Shown here: positions 5,903 to 51,203 of the stretch, piece by piece
Numbering within the stretch: position 1 is the stretch's first letter
Layout of the letters: every line of letters starts with the position of its first letter
DNA from: a virus
Virus record (IMG/VR): IMGVR_UViG_3300020159_002019
Span: 45,291 to 109,290 of that record
Reading direction: 5' to 3' (one strand)
Length of the DNA stretch: 64,000 bases
The notes under the pieces: model-generated
The model's input: the letters and a program-made list of their open reading frames with translations, nothing else
What the model was told of the DNA's origin: nothing
Database searches by the model: none
Position numbers and translations under genes: made by a program

Positions 5903-7726
5903 TTATTTATTATATTTAGCGTCAATCCTTTCAATGATTTCTTCAATCACACCCTTGTTATCAATTACACCATCAATAGCCATATTAATAATGGATCTTT
6001 TTTTATCTAAAACTTCATATACTATCGTATCCACAGTATCGTCAAAAAGTGGAAAATAACAAATAACGTCCTTAGTTTGCCCTATCCTATACGCCCTATC
6101 TAATGATTGGTCAATATTTGCTGGGGTATAATTTAAATCATTTACAATAACAACTTCAGCTGCGGTTAAAGTTAATCCAACACCAGCAGCAACGGTATTA
6201 CCAATAAACAATCTAACATTTGGATTATTTTGAAAATCCTCAACAGCCTTTTGTCTATCCTTTTGACTTGTTTCACCATTAATAACAACACAAATATCTT
6301 TATATTCTTCTCTTAATGTATTAACAACTGAAGTATAATCGGTAAATACAATTACTTTTTTATCCGATTCTAATGAATTATTGATAAGTTCTTTGGTATG
6401 CTTTAATTTATTTTCGGCAACCCATCTTCTTAAAACAGATAATTCAACTAGTTTTTTAGCATATGAAACATTCTTACCTTGTTCTTCCCTCATTTGAATA
6501 TATCTTTCAACAGATGAATCATAATCAATTTTATCATCATCATCTAATTGTAAGTATATAGGTGAAATAATTTTATCAGGTAAATCTAATACATCTTCTT
6601 TTCTTCTTCTAATTGAAACAGGTTTAATCCTTCTATTTAATTCTTCTAAATTTGAAGCACCATCAGCCTTAATAATTCTTCTACCTTTAATCATCATAGT
6701 TTTAGCATTACAATAACTATATAGGAATGAATTATAATTGGTTGATAGTGGATGTTCTACCATAGATAATAATGAAAACAAATCCACAGGTTTATTTGTA
6801 ATTGGTGTTCCTGTTAAAAACCACCTTTTTTTAATTGTTTTAGCTATTTTTTTAACGTGTTTTGTTCTATTCGAACTTGATGATTTTAAATAATGTGCCT
6901 CATCACAAATAATCAAATCAAACTGTTCATTTAATATTTGATTATTAACAGCAACCTCATCGTATTCTTGGAACTTGAACTTAGGTTTTTTTTCTTTTTT
7001 AGGTTTTTCAATTGTATTAAACTTATCTAAGATATCATAATTTATAATTGTCCATTTATTAGGTTTCCATTCTCTTTGAATAATTGATACATTATCAGAA
7101 TCATCATATATAGATATTTCTTTTTTCCAATTTAATTTAAGTGATGCTGGGCATATAACCAATATTTTTTTAGCGTCAGATTCCAAAGCAGCGATAATTG
7201 ATGAGGCTGTTTTACCTAAACCTGGTGTATCTAATAATAAGAAATTATCATTTTGTAATAATTTAATAATAGCTTCTTCTTGATGCTTCATAGGAAGCCT
7301 TGAAGAGTATTTATTCCAATCCACATTTACTTCAGGTATAACCCTAAATAAATCTTCATTTAGTTGAGCTTTTGGTAGCCAAATAAGTTCAGAGTCTCTA
7401 TTTTTAAATAATTTAACTTGGGCGTGATATACCTTTTCTTGTTCCCCAACAATCTTTTCAATTAGGATTTTTTCTATTTGATTAGTAATATTAAATTGTC
7501 TCATTAAAGAGTTCCTAAAGAAATTAGTTAAATCTAAAAACTTATTTACTTCTTTTACTTGAAAATTATGATTATTTATAATATAATTTGCTTGATTTTC
7601 AGTTATCGGTAAGAATGATTTCTTTTCTCTTGTTTTTTTCAATTCCAAGATATAAGGATTATCCCCCACATAACTTTTTAATAAATCTAGAGCTTTAACT
7701 TTAGCAATGTCATTTAATTCTATCAT
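5903..7726 (-). CDS. SNF2-family (SMARCAL1/HARP-like) helicase/ATPase
   Basis: DTPGLGKT Walker A, DEAH, LTGTPITN, AAGVGLTL, QSLDRAYRIGQ. Confidence 0.9.
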   Translation of the reverse strand: MIELNDIAKVKALDLLKSYVGDNPYILELKKTREKKSFLPITENQANYIINNHNFQVKEVNKFLDLTNFFRNSLMRQFNITNQIEKILIEKIVGEQEKVYHAQVKLFKNRDSELIWLPKAQLNEDLFRVIPEVNVDWNKYSSRLPMKHQEEAIIKLLQNDNFLLLDTPGLGKTASSIIAALESDAKKILVICPASLKLNWKKEISIYDDSDNVSIIQREWKPNKWTIINYDILDKFNTIEKPKKEKKPKFKFQEYDEVAVNNQILNEQFDLIICDEAHYLKSSSSNRTKHVKKIAKTIKKRWFLTGTPITNKPVDLFSLLSMVEHPLSTNYNSFLYSYCNAKTMMIKGRRIIKADGASNLEELNRRIKPVSIRRRKEDVLDLPDKIISPIYLQLDDDDKIDYDSSVERYIQMREEQGKNVSYAKKLVELSVLRRWVAENKLKHTKELINNSLESDKKVIVFTDYTSVVNTLREEYKDICVVINGETSQKDRQKAVEDFQNNPNVRLFIGNTVAAGVGLTLTAAEVVIVNDLNYTPANIDQSLDRAYRIGQTKDVICYFPLFDDTVDTIVYEVLDKKRSIINMAIDGVIDNKGVIEEIIERIDAKYNK

Positions 7727-7900
7727 CTATAACAATATAATATTTTTCAATAAAAAATAAATAAATGTTTATTTTATGCTTTATATATTTATATTGACCA
7801 GGACCTTAATAATTAATAGTATATTAAATAATATATATAATAACTAGAAACTAGACCAGAACAGCTTTATATAAAATATATTATAGAACTATTTATATAT

Positions 7901-46013: not shown

Positions 46014-46619
46014 ATGGAAAATAAAGATTGGGTAGGGAATAAGAATAGTATTTTTAAAACATTAGGTGCGAGTAATCATACGGATAAAGAGCGTGAAAAT
46101 GATGATTTTTATGCTACAGATCCTGATGCTGGTAAAATGTTATTAGATTTAGTTGAGTTAAATAAGAATATTTGGGAATGTGCTTGTGGTCAAGGACATC
46201 TAAGTGAAATATTTAAAAATGCTGAACATAATGTTAAATCAACAGATTTAGTTGATAGGGGTTATGGTGAAACAGGTATTGATTTTTTATCACAAACTGA
46301 ATTATTTGATGGTGATATCGTAACAAATCCACCATATAAATACGCTAAGGAGTTTGTTGAGAAAGGATTGGAATTAGTGAATGATGGTAATAAAGTTATT
46401 ATGTTTCTTAAATTACAATTTATGGAAGGTAAAGCCAGAAAAAAGTTATTTACTAAACACCCACCAAAAACAATTTACGTATCTTCAAGTAGAATAACCT
46501 GTGCTAAAAATGCTGATTTTGAAATGATGAAAGCGGGTGGTGGTTCTGCCGTAGCCTATGCTTGGTATGTATGGGAAAAGGGTTTTAATGGGGAAACTAT
46601 CGTAAAATGGTTTAACTAA
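46014..46619 (+). CDS. DNA N6-adenine methyltransferase (phage type)
   Basis: DFYATDP, WECACGQG, IVTNPPY. Confidence 0.85.
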   Translation: MENKDWVGNKNSIFKTLGASNHTDKERENDDFYATDPDAGKMLLDLVELNKNIWECACGQGHLSEIFKNAEHNVKSTDLVDRGYGETGIDFLSQTELFDGDIVTNPPYKYAKEFVEKGLELVNDGNKVIMFLKLQFMEGKARKKLFTKHPPKTIYVSSSRITCAKNADFEMMKAGGGSAVAYAWYVWEKGFNGETIVKWFN

Positions 46620-46657
46620 TATTTGTTTATTTAAGTTTTAATTCATACATTTGTAAA

Positions 46658-47149
46658 ATGGTTAAAGTATTAGCGAGATTTTTATTTTGGGGTATGTTGA
46701 AGAAACAAGGGATTACCGATTCTAATGTTGAGAATCAGGATAATACCTATTTCATATCAATTAATTCAACTGAAGGGAATGATATGGAGCCTTATTTTAA
46801 GGAAAAACATTCAAATGTATTGACATTATATTTTGATGATTGTAATGAATATAAAAAACATCCCATTATTGGTTGTTCTGGTGAGTTCTACGAGCAAATA
46901 CCTATGAGTGAAGAACAAGCGTTAGAGGTGGTTAATTTCGTTGAAAAAATGAATGAAAACTCTAAAGTGTATGTTCATTGTACTGCTGGCGTATCAAGAA
47001 GTGGTGCTGTTGGTGCATTTATAAATGATTATTTTGGTATGAGTTGGGATAAGTTTAAGTTTGATAACCCACAAGTGATTCCAAATTCACATATATCATC
47101 ATTGTTAAAGAAGGTGTATTATGGGAAATATCCTGACATATATAAATAA
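46658..47149 (+). CDS. Dual-specificity/tyrosine phosphatase-like protein
   Basis: VHCTAGVSRSGA (CX5R); Bacteroidota promoter immediately upstream. Confidence 0.85.
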   Translation: MVKVLARFLFWGMLKKQGITDSNVENQDNTYFISINSTEGNDMEPYFKEKHSNVLTLYFDDCNEYKKHPIIGCSGEFYEQIPMSEEQALEVVNFVEKMNENSKVYVHCTAGVSRSGAVGAFINDYFGMSWDKFKFDNPQVIPNSHISSLLKKVYYGKYPDIYK

Positions 47150-47178
47150 AAAAAGGGGTTTATTTAACCCCTTTTTTT
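47149..47178. terminator. Bidirectional terminator
   Basis: aaaaaaggggtt/aacccctttttt. Confidence 0.75.
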
Positions 47179-48062
47179 ATGATTAAAATTTCGTGTGATT
47201 CTTTAACTATTTTACCTTCATTTAATTCTAATCTATTTTTACCAATTCTTTTTTCACCATTAGACATAGAATAATTCCATTCAGGAAAATAGAAATCGAA
47301 ATCTTTATAATATTCTCTTATGGTTTCACAATTATTATATGAAAGAACAAAATCTCCTTTATGTTCTAATAACATATCTCTTAGAAGTTGGTGGTTGAAA
47401 CCTGAATGATGAACATCTATATTTTTCATCGGATACATACCTTTATGCATTTTATTATCACTATCTTTATCCAAGTAGTAAGGTGGGTCTAAATAAAGAA
47501 AATTTTCTTTATGTTTATCTAAAGTCACATCAAAAGTTTGATTATAAACAGATAAGTTTGGACAACTAAATAATCTTACATTGTTTATCATATCACCCCA
47601 TTTTTTATCCGTTAAATAAACACTACTACCCCAACCAAGATAACCGGGCCCATATGAACAATTATGGTTGAAATAATAATAAGCTGCTAATGTAATATCA
47701 TCTAAAGTAATAACATCATTTCTTTTATAGTAGTCGGTATTCCAATTTTTAAGCAATTCTTGTGTTTTATCACATTTAATGAGAATATCTTTTATTCTAC
47801 TATATTCTTCATTGGTTGGATTTATTTCACTCATTTTTTGAGATAATTCATTTGGTTTAGATAATAAAACATTCCAAAAGTTAGTCAGAACATCAAATAC
47901 ATCATAACCAATAACTGTCTTATTTAAATTACCAGCCCAATGAACTTCTAATGAACCACCACCAATAAAGGGAGAAATAATTTTATCGTAATCAACTATG
48001 AATGGTGTAATATGTTTAATTGCCTTTGATTTACCGCCAGCGTATCTAATAATTGTTTTCAT
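47160..48062 (-). CDS. Dam-like (D12 class) DNA adenine methyltransferase
   Basis: RYAGGKS, SPFIGGGS, YLDPPY, LSYN. Confidence 0.9.
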   Translation of the reverse strand: MKTIIRYAGGKSKAIKHITPFIVDYDKIISPFIGGGSLEVHWAGNLNKTVIGYDVFDVLTNFWNVLLSKPNELSQKMSEINPTNEEYSRIKDILIKCDKTQELLKNWNTDYYKRNDVITLDDITLAAYYYFNHNCSYGPGYLGWGSSVYLTDKKWGDMINNVRLFSCPNLSVYNQTFDVTLDKHKENFLYLDPPYYLDKDSDNKMHKGMYPMKNIDVHHSGFNHQLLRDMLLEHKGDFVLSYNNCETIREYYKDFDFYFPEWNYSMSNGEKRIGKNRLELNEGKIVKESHEILIIKKGVK

Positions 48063-48145
48063 AATAAAAATATATGGTTTGATGATATAAAAACATAGAT
48101 ATAGGTAATATTTATTTTTAGTAATCTTATACTTATATATGGTGT

Positions 48146-48202
48146 ATGAGTAAAATTAAAATGTTGGTTACAACGATAGATGGCGCTGGTGTGGGTGCTT
48201 AA
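48146..48202 (+). pseudogene. Stranded N-terminal fragment of glycosyltransferase (MSKIKMLVTTIDGAGVGA*)
   Basis: Same peptide as 49234-49326 with different codons; stops at the insertion junction. Confidence 0.7.
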
Positions 48203-48965
48203 TATTTTTTATTTCATTTAATATAAAATCAATACCTTTTTCTTTGTAATCATACTCCCAAATCGTAATAACGGTAAATCCTTTACTCTCACCTAATATG
48301 GTTTTTTGTTTATCATATTCCCATAATTCTTTTGCCGTCATACCCTTTTTTTTGTTCATATAATCACTATTATATAATTTAGGGTTACAATGCCAGTAAT
48401 CACCATTGAACTCAATTAGAATGTTTTTATTGGGTATATGGAAATCAAATAATTTACCTTCAATGTTGAAGTTTAATTTTATATCGTTATAATTTTTTTT
48501 AAGTAGAGATAGTATTTCATTTTGTGTTTTTGATGTTGGCGAGTATTTTAATTTACCTAATTTATGTCTATTAGACATAACTTTCTTCATTTTTTCTCTG
48601 GTTTTTTCTAAATTACCACTATCCCAAGACTTTTTAAGACCTTCAGAAACTTTTTTTCTATTTTCAGGTTTATTCATAGCGTTAGCGTCACCACAACCCT
48701 TATTTTTTCTTGATTTTGATATTTTTTTTATTGACTCTTCATTGTGTTTTTTACCCGCAAATGGATTACCTGAACCTGTTTGTGATATTACTGTACATTT
48801 ATGACATTTTTTATTTTTCTTAGTAAAGGTTTTTATGTTTCGTATTAAATAATATTTGGCGTTTTTTTGATTACCATCTGTTGAATGTGTTATTTTATCA
48901 CCACAAATAGGGCAATTTCTATTAGCGTAATACCTACCATTTTCATATTTTATATCTATATCCAT
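48168..48965 (-). CDS. Putative homing endonuclease (Zn finger + NUMOD3 + Vsr/DUF559-like nuclease)
   Basis: CPIC/CHKC; GNPFAGKKHNEESIKKIS; FDFHIP..NILIEFNGDYWH; ITIWE. Confidence 0.8.
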   Translation of the reverse strand: MDIDIKYENGRYYANRNCPICGDKITHSTDGNQKNAKYYLIRNIKTFTKKNKKCHKCTVISQTGSGNPFAGKKHNEESIKKISKSRKNKGCGDANAMNKPENRKKVSEGLKKSWDSGNLEKTREKMKKVMSNRHKLGKLKYSPTSKTQNEILSLLKKNYNDIKLNFNIEGKLFDFHIPNKNILIEFNGDYWHCNPKLYNSDYMNKKKGMTAKELWEYDKQKTILGESKGFTVITIWEYDYKEKGIDFILNEIKNIKHPHQRHLSL

Positions 48966-49138
48966 TATATAATAAAATCTTCATTTATTTTATTGTTTTT
49001 TAATAAATCTCTATAAACTAAATGCTCAATATACTTAGATTTATTTTTATGTGATTCACCCATAATCTTATCTAATTCAGGATTTAAGGTTATACTTACT
49101 TTAACTTTCTTTTTTCCTTCTTCTATTTTATTTCTCAT
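48965..49138 (-). CDS. Ribbon-helix-helix-like small DNA-binding protein
   Basis: KVKVSITLNPEL...NKSKYIEHLV. Confidence 0.65.
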   Translation of the reverse strand: MRNKIEEGKKKVKVSITLNPELDKIMGESHKNKSKYIEHLVYRDLLKNNKINEDFII

Positions 49139-49233
49139 ATTATATAAATACACAAAAAAAATAAAAAACAAGATTTTTATAGTATTTTTTCATTAATGTT
49201 TATTTTTCTTACTACATTAGTTATATATGGTGT

Positions 49234-49326
49234 ATGAAAAATAACGAAATTACGGGAGAACAAAAATACAACCCTGGCAAGATCAAGATGTTGGTGACAA
49301 CTATTGATGGTGCTGGGGTTGGTTGA
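49234..49326 (+). CDS. Second N-terminal segment of glycosyltransferase (MKNNEITGEQKYNPGKIKMLVTTIDGAGVG*)
   Basis: Ends GGT-TGA, out of frame with the main ORF. Confidence 0.65.
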   Translation: MKNNEITGEQKYNPGKIKMLVTTIDGAGVG

Positions 49327-50486
49327 ATAAAGGTGCTTATAGAATGAGATGGCCTCACGTTCATCTACAAGAAATGTTTCAGGATGAAATACATATAGAT
49401 ATTATTGATATATCTGACTTTACAGATATTACAATATATAAAGATTATAATATTATATTCTGTCATAGAAGTTTAACTCCTGATATTGGAGCAACTCCTG
49501 AAATATATAAAAGATTAAAACAACAAAACCCTAATCAAATTATTATTGGTGATATTGACGATCATTGGTTGGTTGATCCATCACACGGATTATATCAAAT
49601 CATCAAGTTCCAACAAATAGATAAAAAGATTGTTGAGAATTTAAAAATATTTGATTATGTGACAACAACCAATTTATATTTCGCTTCTAAGATAAGGCAA
49701 TATAATAAGAATGTGGTAATATTCCCAAATGCTATTAATCCAAGAGATAGACAATTTATCCCTAATAGGGAAGAAAATGATAAGATTGGTATTGGTTATT
49801 TAGGTGGTTCATCACATTTAAAAGATTTACAATTATTGCATGGTGTGACGAATGTTCTATCAGGCGATAAGTCCGTTATGGATAAGATACAATTGGTTTT
49901 ATGTGGTTTTGATTTAAGGGGGACAAAAACAACCATAAATGCTCAAACTGGGGAACAAATGCAAGAACCGATTAAACCTCACGAAACTGTTTGGTATGAT
50001 TACGAAAAAATTGTAACGGATAATTATAATATTATTTCACCACAATATAAGAACTATTTAGATAGATTTACTCAAGGATCATTTGATGATAAGAATGAAC
50101 CGTATAGAAGAAGATGGACATTACCAATCAACAAATATGCTACAAACTATAACTACTTTGATATATCATTGGCTCCATTAGTAGAAACTGAGTTTAATAG
50201 GGTTAAATCGTCATTGAAGGTAATGGAAGCAGGTTTCCATAAGAAAGCTTTAATTGCGTCACATATTGAACCATATTCAGAAGATATTATTGATGGTAAG
50301 AATGGGTTTTTAATTGAACAAAAAAGAAGTCATAAAGATTGGCATAAAACAATTAAGAAATTGGTTAATAACCCTGAACAAATAAAAGATATGGGTGAAG
50401 CGTTATATGAAACCGTAAAGGAAAAATATAACTTAGATTTTGTATCAAAAAATAGGATGGAATTTTATAGGTCAGTAATAAAATGA
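49323..50486 (+). CDS. Glycosyltransferase (GT-B fold), main body
   Basis: GAYRMRWPH, DIDD, GYLGGSSHLKDL, DISLAPL...FNRVKSSLKVMEAG. Confidence 0.85.
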   Translation: MNKGAYRMRWPHVHLQEMFQDEIHIDIIDISDFTDITIYKDYNIIFCHRSLTPDIGATPEIYKRLKQQNPNQIIIGDIDDHWLVDPSHGLYQIIKFQQIDKKIVENLKIFDYVTTTNLYFASKIRQYNKNVVIFPNAINPRDRQFIPNREENDKIGIGYLGGSSHLKDLQLLHGVTNVLSGDKSVMDKIQLVLCGFDLRGTKTTINAQTGEQMQEPIKPHETVWYDYEKIVTDNYNIISPQYKNYLDRFTQGSFDDKNEPYRRRWTLPINKYATNYNYFDISLAPLVETEFNRVKSSLKVMEAGFHKKALIASHIEPYSEDIIDGKNGFLIEQKRSHKDWHKTIKKLVNNPEQIKDMGEALYETVKEKYNLDFVSKNRMEFYRSVIK

Positions 50487-50728
50487 GGACTATAAATCAA
50501 TACATTATTGAAAACAAACGGAAAGTTAAATTAAATTTAAGAACCGTTAATGTTAATGTTGGTGCTCGACCAATTAGAGCGATTTGGACACCTGAAATGG
50601 TTCAAGATATTTCTGCGTTTCATAATATAGATGCTGAGGCTGAATTATCTAGAATATTAAATGAAGAATTAAGTAGGAATATTGATTATCAAATTATTAG
50701 GAATTTTTTAAATAATGATTTACATTAA
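50483..50728 (+). CDS. Small protein resembling an internal fragment of T4 gp23-like major capsid protein
   Basis: ARPIRAIWTPEMVQDISAFHNIDAEAELSRILNEELSRNID. Confidence 0.7.
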   Translation: MRTINQYIIENKRKVKLNLRTVNVNVGARPIRAIWTPEMVQDISAFHNIDAEAELSRILNEELSRNIDYQIIRNFLNNDLH

Positions 50729-50982
50729 TGAGAACAATAAAACAATATAATATACAACGAAGGTTAAGAAATAACCTAAATAAGTGGGATGTCGTATTAG
50801 GAAATAGAGGTGGGGTTGATACCGGTTTGGTATTTGCTCCATATATACCAGTTCAATTAGATCCGGTAATGTTAGACAATCAAATAGTTGGTGTTAGTAG
50901 TAGATATGCGTCCGTTCAGGTAAATCCGAATAATTATGGTGTTATTAATATACCGAATGTAAATGGAAGGATATTTGTATGA
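50728..50982 (+). CDS. Small protein resembling the C-terminal fragment of gp23-like major capsid protein
   Basis: DTGLVFAPYIPVQL...GVSSRYA...NPNNYGVINI. Confidence 0.7.
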   Translation: MRTIKQYNIQRRLRNNLNKWDVVLGNRGGVDTGLVFAPYIPVQLDPVMLDNQIVGVSSRYASVQVNPNNYGVINIPNVNGRIFV

Positions 50983-51203
50983 GAAGTTTAAAAAATTTAA
51001 TAGGTAGGAAAAAACCTTTAATTGATTTAAGTTGGGATAGCGCCAATCTGACTATCGGTGATTTTTATCCTATAACTAATAATATTAGCAATAATATAAT
51101 TACAAATGGTGGGATTGTGTTTAATAATTTACCTATTAGTCCAATAGGATTAACAGAGGGTAGTGTGTGGAGAGATGGTGAAGGTATTTTAAGAATTGTT
51201 TGA
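50979..51203 (+). CDS. Small protein with fibre-like C-terminal motif
   Basis: NLPISPIGLTEGSVWRDGEGILRIV. Confidence 0.5.
   Translation: MRSLKNLIGRKKPLIDLSWDSANLTIGDFYPITNNISNNIITNGGIVFNNLPISPIGLTEGSVWRDGEGILRIV

Follow-up and report, generated by a model that had tools for sequence, protein, structure and literature searches.

A homing-endonuclease cassette probably carrying a programmed translational bypass for the glycosyltransferase gene of uncultured phages

The subject of this analysis is a glycosyltransferase (GT) gene in a 64,000-nt stretch of the virus record IMGVR_UViG_3300020159_002019, hereafter the window, and the insert that interrupts this gene. The record is that of a lake phage, a 109-kb IMG/VR virus of 29.9% G+C with several tRNA genes and T4-like genes; coordinates are positions in the window unless a locus (L..., P...) is named. 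In our judgment, the insert is very likely a mobile cassette of a homing endonuclease and brings with it a programmed translational bypass ("stop-hop") for the GT gene it invaded. It holds an endonuclease, a small open reading frame (ORF), an upstream region and a replacement GT 5′ end, the latter composed of a 15-codon unique extension, a recoded 15-codon GT start ending in G-V-G, and an 11-nt insert (TGA ATAAA GGT) across which the ribosome would hop.

As the preliminary description of this DNA had proposed, the start of the GT gene is present twice, with synonymous recoding. A 45-nt coding repeat for KIKMLVTTIDGAGVG (48152–48196 and 49279–49323, 80% identity) shows nine synonymous and no non-synonymous codon differences. 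Both copies also begin alike, sharing the exact 17-mer TTATATATGGTGTATGA that holds the ATG (48133–48149 and 49221–49237); there is no third exact copy in the window, and the match count was reached by 0 of 100 shuffles. The 17-mer lies in an upstream repeat of 57 nt with 74% identity (48106–48162 versus 49194–49250). The insertion is bounded, again as described earlier, by the 8-nt repeat GGTGCTTA at 48194 and 49332, and removal of one repeat copy together with the intervening DNA restores the native gene. Neither copy of the start is in frame with the GT body. Copy 1 terminates as ...GGT GCT TAA, with the stop at 48200–48202. Copy 2 reads GGT (49321–49323) TGA ATAAA GGT (49332–49334) GCT TAT AGA; the body lies in the −1 frame relative to it, and the second GGT, the proposed landing codon, is the first GGN past the first, the proposed take-off codon.

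Deleting the 11 nt gives the native protein, because uninterrupted relatives read exactly MSKIKMLVTTIDGAGVGAYRMRWPH at their start (L002, L008, L003; P0124, P0127, P0131; identity up to 96%). The joined sequence expected after the deletion, GAGVGAYRMRWPH, is that of these relatives, so the G-V-G-A-Y-R junction anticipated from the window alone was found as an exact join in natural genes. The 11 nt do not stem from an assembly error. L006, L007 and L015, all taken from other metagenomes, have the identical extension allele with the identical 11 nt; the stretch was reproduced with 0 differences when the probable source run was assembled independently (Logan); and an unrelated DNA run gave a gapless contig across 49283–49480 that contains the 11 nt. 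A 12-nt gap variant of the window allele (TGAAAATCAGGT), read from overlapping unitig ends and not from one long contig, was present at high depth in an unrelated lake run and keeps the GGT, the TGA and the closing GGT. Exact scans of IMG/VR found neither the 12-nt variant nor other gap variants within the window's own subfamily. In JGI metagenomes the extension peptide was seen only with the gap or as a stub, and a protein search with a padded query of the 30-aa first ORF gave no match, which is weak evidence.

The same design recurs well beyond the window's own subfamily. It was met first at L024, during a flanking-repeat check of other loci of the endonuclease family: in this different phage the GT is only ~50% identical, the cassette sits at the same residue, and a native stub (...SDRTGVGY, then a stop) is followed by the endonuclease, a new first ORF MTKLKNNNAPVGRKIRVLVVPSDRTGVG and GGT TAA GGC TAC TAT AGA. 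A scan of IMG/VR for the pattern V-x-P-S-D-x-x-G-V-G followed by T-R-R returned 52 loci, 50 of which are this GT with a stop directly after G-V-G. Together with the window and L007, these 50 form a family set of 52 loci with 33 distinct versions.

In all 33 versions the first ORF comprises 26–30 codons, namely a unique N-terminal extension (NTE) and a recoded copy of the 15-residue GT start ending in G-V-G. The take-off codon is GGT or GGC, and a stop follows it directly in 33/33 (TAA in 16, TGA in 15, TAG in 2). Fifteen different gaps were found, 5, 6, 7, 8, 11 or 12 nt long, covering all three frames, with spacers of 2–9 nt and no G in the interior; the landing codon is GGT, GGC or GGA and always the first GGN. 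Take-off and landing codons combine as GGT/GGT (15 versions), GGC/GGT (11), GGT/GGA (4) and GGT/GGC (3). Past the gap the protein continues as x-[FY]-R-S..P-H, and the GT body is intact (at least 377 aa) in all 27 loci with room for it. A hop is favored since one re-pairing event at the next Gly would yield the native G-V-G-x-[FY]-R in every version; among the mechanisms considered, only hopping of peptidyl-tRNA(Gly) would account for them all.

The preliminary description had left the choice between an 11-nt hop and a restart at the TTG that overlaps the stop. Under the restart, the enzyme would be split: a 30-residue product (β1 plus Gly loop) and a body whose translation begins anew at TTG 49323 or ATG 49344 would assemble in trans, as in Aeh1 NrdA. 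The window has the overlapping TTGA and an ATG three codons past the landing codon, overlapping stop/start pairs are common in this phage, and functional split genes after endonuclease insertion are known (PMC3045599). However, the 12-nt variant takes the TTG out of frame, the invariant Y/F-R would be lost with a start at ATG 49344, and no start is conserved in the relatives, where the first in-frame ATG, GTG or TTG lies 4–165 codons past the landing codon or is absent; most 6-nt versions read GGC TGA GGT AAA TTT. Splitting would also leave the constant Gly codon that closes the gap unexplained. We regard a split enzyme as quite improbable. Of the two earlier options, the hop is the one backed by the 33 versions in three frames, by their intact bodies and by the hairpin described below, and TTG restart fails as a general mechanism.

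Alternatively, each allele could use a mechanism of its own, with stop read-through at the 6- and 12-nt gaps and a +1 or −1 frameshift at the others. UGA is leaky in many bacteria, and read-through of the in-frame versions could give a product with 2–4 extra residues. Yet every one of the three stop codons occurs, slippery sequences are absent, and the 5-, 7-, 8- and 11-nt gaps would each need a different shift; the extra residues would fall in the invariant Gly loop, and the hop alone would explain every version. This patchwork is the least probable of the accounts we weighed. Frameshifting was rejected as a candidate, there being no slippery site and no shift common to the versions. Reassignment of TGA was likewise rejected: TGA terminates the GT gene itself, each of the three stops is found after the take-off codon, and none of the tRNAs encoded by the phage is a suppressor.

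The dominant conserved signal of the family is an RNA hairpin that ends at the take-off codon. In the window its folding energy is −25.9 kcal/mol (z = −5.7 versus 1000 shuffles), the second most stable among 6395 windows folded. The outer stem pairs the extension codons CAACCCUGGCA with the A-G-V codons, and the first base of the take-off codon is the last of the 3′ arm. An equivalent hairpin ending at the take-off codon is present in 33/33 versions (−23 to −38 kcal/mol, z −3 to −8.5). Covariation links the wobble positions of the Gly and Val codons to the extension: the Val codon shows AU, UA, GC and CG pairs at this position, and up to six pair types occur at one position of the hairpin. Native sequences fold at −29.0 kcal/mol versus −20.6 kcal/mol for chimeras with 5′ parts swapped between versions (mean cost 8.5 kcal/mol, p = 6e-19).

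The hairpin alignment was built with a covariance model; RNAalifold on codon-register alignments returned none or part of the structure, because the 5′ arm shifts by 1–3 nt between subfamilies. A model made from ten sequences of one subfamily matched all other subfamilies and the window (22.8 bits, E 0.006), and the same model found no match in the uninterrupted loci. In the model-based alignment, 83 cells changed on both sides versus 27 ± 4 in shuffles (0/500), the covariation score was 0.269 versus 0.03–0.07 with slid partners, and the outer helix was 92% paired. An Rfam search of 48000–49600 gave no match. NTE residues vary and track the RNA pairing, and an NTE is present in all versions. 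In the 12-nt variant three extension residues are changed (Y12N, N13S, P14S), and the pairing is kept through an A-U to G·U change and a compensatory exchange of a C-G for a U-A pair (49273 C>T together with 49317 G>A). Because this variant alters residues while the stem persists, the extension appears to evolve largely as RNA.

A hairpin that ends at a repeated triplet would also suit removal of the gap at the RNA level, in which the nascent structure slides the RNA polymerase forward by hybrid shearing or forward translocation and the ...GGU 3′ end re-pairs at the downstream GGT, or in which some unknown RNA processing acts; the matched triplets fit such a jump. The in-frame stop right after the first Gly in 33/33 versions would then have no explanation, and jumps of 5–12 nt are, to our knowledge, without precedent among bacterial and phage RNA polymerases. 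Nothing points to removal of the gap from the RNA, as a metatranscriptome contig across 49262–49404 (15 substitutions, no indel) retains the 11 nt, although this contig may derive from contaminating DNA. We give an RNA-level jump only a slight chance.

The stop-hop, which we prefer, would proceed as follows. Ribosomes would translate the 30-codon first ORF, and decoding would stall once GGU occupies the P site and UGA the A site. At that point the ribosome would still hold the hairpin's 3′ arm, formed by the 11 nt immediately behind the take-off codon, and the loop and the 5′ arm would be already out. Zipping of the outer stem would need mRNA to be drawn from the exit side, so that the ribosome would slide forward. 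Peptidyl-tRNA(Gly) would release and re-pair with the first GGN within 5–12 nt, possibly with participation of the phage's own tRNAs, which include tRNA-Gly(GCC) and tRNA-Gly(UCC). Decoding would resume at GCU and give ...GAGVG-AYRMRWPH..., i.e., the native enzyme with a 13-residue N-terminal extension. The recoding and the insert would probably break the recognition site of the endonuclease; uninterrupted alleles would be cut and converted, and carrier genomes would escape. In the window, the cassette entered the gene itself; the first 18 codons of the native copy remain upstream of the endonuclease, as a dead stub.

We go one step further with somewhat less assurance, and on balance think that the family represents a new, portable class of recoding signal. 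In it, a "spring-loaded" hairpin whose 3′ strand is the last 10–12 nt before the Gly-stop would drive a 5–12 nt hop to the next Gly at useful efficiency, and Vsr-like homing endonucleases would have spread it among aquatic phages as a self-immunity insert.

The adjoining homing endonuclease also suggests another explanation, namely that the insert inactivates the GT and that endonuclease drive or hitch-hiking keeps a dead allele. Some native 5′ ends are joined to bodies identical to interrupted ones, all that L003 and L016 hold of the extension allele is a truncated stub, an intact gene lying downstream of it, and the enzyme may be dispensable. On the other hand, all 33 versions keep the Gly-stop...Gly without any other lesion, 27 of 27 bodies are intact, and the median dN/dS among the interrupted bodies is 0.20, a value that may partly reflect divergence older than acquisition of the cassette. 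Between the recoded homologous region (HomR) and native alleles, amino acids are kept through 9–12 synonymous codon differences with 0–1 non-synonymous ones (Fisher p 5e-5 to 6e-3 versus the gene body), and the covarying hairpin is maintained. The gap is also kept in about one third of the versions after loss of the endonuclease, and the 12-nt variant is abundant in a lake run in which endonuclease depth is ~10-fold lower. A broken gene spread by homing is therefore, in our view, improbable.

Several points weigh against the stop-hop itself. Known unstimulated stop-hops are inefficient (PMC5009743). Gap nucleotides form no stem-loop (fold of 49295–49350, z = 0.15; gaps of 5–12 nt without G), and no mini Shine-Dalgarno sequence stands 5–7 nt before the landing codon, gaps of 5–8 nt being too short for one; genes of this phage mostly lack Shine-Dalgarno sequences. 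The four versions with GGT to GGA would need a tolerated wobble mismatch. Homing could spread a harmful allele, and P0122 and P0127, one interrupted and one with a native 5′ end, have identical bodies, so some interruptions are recent. The cleavage site of the endonuclease is placed solely by the positions of stub ends, and the phages and hosts that carry this design are all uncultured. The qualifications given above for dN/dS, the metatranscriptome contig and the unitig-derived 12-nt variant count on the same side.

The features of the window locus are listed in Table 1.

Table 1. Features of the interrupted GT locus, in window coordinates.
Feature	Position	Strand	Basis
Native GT leader upstream of copy 1; ends in the 17-mer, ATG at 48146	48106–48149	+	
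Stub, native GT 5′ end (MSKIKMLVTTIDGAGVGA + TAA), cut by the cassette right after GGTGCT(TA)	48146–48202	+	
Homing endonuclease, 265-aa ORF: zinc finger, NUMOD3, predicted Vsr-like nuclease	48168–48965	−	Pfam, AlphaFold2, Foldseek
8-nt repeat bounding the insertion	48194–48201 (left), 49332–49339 (right)	+	Repeat search
57-aa ORF; its stop overlaps the endonuclease start (TAATG)	48965–49138	−	
Cassette-borne leader of copy 2; 17-mer at 49221–49237, ATG at 49234	49194–49237	+	
NTE (MKNNEITGEQKYNPG), encodes the hairpin 5′ arm	49234–49278	+	
53-nt RNA hairpin; 11-bp outer stem CAACCCUGGCA/UGCUGGGGUUG	49269–49321	+	Folding, covariation
HomR (KIKMLVTTIDGAGVG); last codon GGT (49321–49323) is the proposed take-off	49279–49323	+	
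11-nt coding gap: stop TGA (49324–49326), ATAAA, landing GGT (49332–49334)	49324–49334	+	
GT body, resumes at GCT (AYRMRWPH...), 383 codons, ends in TGA	49335–50486	+	Pfam Glycos_transf_1

The stub protein is identical to the first 18 residues of uninterrupted homologs, and the copy-1 leader is the continuation of the leader that follows Dam in the uninterrupted L002, L005 and L008. The NTE is absent from every uninterrupted homolog, and analogous extensions occur in the relatives. The duplicated leaders are not called promoters, because their shared upstream motif ATATTTATTTTT showed no enrichment and a sigma-70 scan was at chance level.

Of the two minus-strand genes between the copies, the preliminary description had read one as a NUMOD3/Vsr-like endonuclease, and domain and structure searches agree. 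The NUMOD3 match scores 27 bits versus a 20.4 Pfam cut-off, with DUF559 and MTES_1575 scoring below theirs; metagenomic homologs are many and annotated Vsr. An AlphaFold2 model (pLDDT 89) predicts a Vsr-like C-terminal domain, for which the top Foldseek matches are Vsr 1cw0, I-Bth0305I 3r3p and 1vsr (probability 1.0, E 2e-3 or weaker), and D174, H192, D218 and E237 are invariant among 33 homologs. The other gene, the 57-aa ORF, had been taken for an RHH protein, an identity that found no database backing: there was no Pfam match up to E = 10 and no PDB sequence match, and the ORF is RHH-like by eye only. Its sole match is phrog_14312, of unknown function (E 0.004), and it is conserved at 91–92% in L003, L006, L007 and L016.

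Compared with known Vsr-like homing endonucleases (I-Bth0305I, PDB 3r3p; free-standing Vsr types of T4-like phages), the window enzyme shares the predicted C-terminal fold, the NUMOD3 modules and a free-standing gene adjoining the presumed target. Unlike them, it is not borne by an intron or intein, it is inverted relative to its target, and a small separate ORF precedes it. The left end of the cassette is the endonuclease stop codon in both insertion types, that of the window and that of L003/L016. Stubs end at GGTGCT/TA in the window and after GGGGTT in L003 and L016, positions 6 nt apart around the G-V-G codons; since both stub types end there, this is the likely cleavage region of the endonuclease. 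In the window (48168–48203), a T run differs in length by 1 nt from that of L003 and L007, whose copies show the natural ends; the endonuclease has thereby lost its stop codon, and it now reads ~10 extra codons through the antisense of the stub.

Among the 31 distinct relatives, 21 have a same-strand endonuclease copy, which lies at most 50 nt upstream in 20 and 171 nt upstream in the other. At L107 (2354–3329), an example of this common same-strand arrangement, a 300-aa endonuclease carries a fused N-terminal HTH, and its ORF runs 8 nt into the start of the bypass first ORF, resembling the overlap of MobA with the gene 60 extension.

Closely related loci show the cassette in several states. 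The native order in L002, L005 and L008 is Dam, leader, GT. The window has Dam, leader, the 18-codon native stub, endonuclease (−), small ORF (−), second leader, extension, recoded region, gap and GT; L007 and L015 are arranged in the same way without the stub and Dam, and in L006 the endonuclease is deleted and the rest is kept. In L003 (1033–2170) and L016 (reverse strand, ~6548–7740 of the reversed locus), the extension/bypass allele is a truncated stub ending in GGGGTT; after it come a diverged endonuclease of 227 aa, the small ORF and a native GT that is intact. This order suggests that a second endonuclease variant invaded the bypass allele and restored a plain gene. Between the window and L007, the island 49230–49339, which reaches from the ATG to a little beyond the landing codon, differs at 1 position in 110 nt, with 11 differences in 40 nt on the leader side and 8 in 50 nt on the body side.

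Further variation was seen at and around the GT 5′ end. L005 (4968–5040) and P0001 have an uninterrupted GT in which a ~45-nt patch at G-V-G is recoded in G+C-rich codons (SAGVGFFRMKAPH), the rest being ~90% identical to the window; this patch may be a cleavage-resistant allele of the endonuclease target. The IMG/VR contigs L004, L009, L010 and L011 break at or just after the GT 5′ end, L009 beginning at the landing-codon position, which fits the co-existence of several junction alleles in single samples. Upstream, the region 46014–48062, compared with L006, L007, L008 and L016, is a variable hot spot between a 163-aa phosphatase-like gene and the GT; close relatives differ there in the presence and the order of both the Dam methylase and a 201-aa methyltransferase.

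The GT matches PF00534 (Glycos_transf_1; 32.4 bits versus a 26.4 cut-off) and belongs to the GT-B class; the window body is 96% identical to the uninterrupted 400-aa P0001. In the AlphaFold2 model of the native homolog P0124 (pTM 0.79), β1 spans residues 4–9, the Gly loop 10–15 and α1 16–31. The [FY], R, P and H residues just past the gap are invariant in 122 GT homologs. Gene callers shorten interrupted GT genes (380- and 370-aa calls), and annotation pipelines miss these genes for this reason. Close relatives of the locus or the GT family were absent from the GenBank phage collection, where only megaphages matched, at 33% or across 162 nt. In a contig shared by L024 (3957–6131) and L104, and also in L103 and L134, the interrupted GT holds an intein-like Hint-type insert (CVTPDTEIL...) at the conserved LGGS/SH; judged from these sequences, the GT of these loci is a target of two kinds of selfish element. 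Downstream of the GT in the window (50483–51203) lie three small back-to-back ORFs, the first of which matches a Gp23 capsid fragment (Pfam PF07068, E 3e-14); L007, L008 and L009 lack this block or have a different one.

The closest known counterpart is the bypass of T4 gene 60, whose cassette was reportedly placed within a MobA homing-endonuclease element by Bonocora et al. in 2011. Both systems have an endonuclease-borne insert with a unique NTE and a recoded homologous region of ~15 residues; a Gly take-off codon, a stop, an AU-rich gap and a matched Gly landing codon; an insert that ends at or just after the landing codon; frequent loss of the endonuclease with the gap kept; and mRNA pairing 5′ of the take-off codon. 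In the MobA/gene 60 element as described by Manning and Atkins, the endonuclease is followed by the unique extension, a homologous region of ~15 residues that is 67–81% identical in DNA to the target, and the bypass; the landing codon marks the end of the insert or directly precedes it, and the endonuclease is frequently lost (bioRxiv 10.1101/2022.08.31.505936). All published cassettes of this type are in Topo2L and have gaps of 20–50 nt (bioRxiv 10.1101/2022.08.31.505936), and pairing of the exiting mRNA has been proposed by Wills, Parsawar and Atkins as a "driver" of forward sliding in gene 60 (bioRxiv 10.1101/2024.12.09.627546).

The two systems also differ. The target here is a GT and not topoisomerase II, and the endonuclease is Vsr-like with NUMOD3 and not an HNH MobA. 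Gaps measure 5–12 nt instead of 20–50 nt, with neither a stem-loop inside the gap nor a mini Shine-Dalgarno, and the dominant conserved signal is instead the long hairpin that ends at the take-off codon; take-off is from codon 26–30 here and from codon 46 in gene 60. The interrupted ORF would encode a whole enzyme, not two needed subunits, and there is no sequence homology to the gene 60 cassette. From its sequence organization, the present system appears to be a new, short-gap, 5′-hairpin variant of the endonuclease-linked bypass known from T4 gene 60.

Two other precedents are relevant. Synthetic stop-hops, described in 1987, worked at a low level without stimulators; no natural in-frame stop-hop is known, and shorter natural matched-codon counterparts have long been expected (reviewed in PMC5009743). 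Our 6-nt class (e.g., GGC UGA GGU) has the same configuration, and the 11-nt gap of the window is a slightly longer form; the design here is natural, conserved and paired with a dedicated hairpin, in contrast to the synthetic ones. The second precedent is that of endonuclease-split genes such as Aeh1 nrdA, which mobE divides into a two-polypeptide gene that is still functional (PMC3045599), and T4 gene 39/60. These share with our family a free-standing homing endonuclease inside a conserved phage gene and added terminal extensions, but the present family has no conserved restart codon, and the upstream stub is not needed, since the cassette brings a complete N-terminus of its own. Full-text literature searches found no paper that links this GT with bypassing.

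What is known of programmed bypassing has so far rested on one system in a single topoisomerase gene, T4 gene 60 with its homologs; besides it, the yeast mitochondrial byps form the sole large set. The GT family described here offers dozens of natural variants, with 15 gap sequences, three frames, all three stops and a simple covarying 5′ hairpin, and it makes the proposed drive by exiting-mRNA pairing directly testable with small reporters. If the portable recoding signal proposed above is real, it would be the first natural short-range, in-frame stop-hopping system and a second independent origin of endonuclease-linked bypass. The pairing of a second, unrelated endonuclease family with a bypass insert would then argue that selfish elements use bypass for self-immunity as a general strategy.

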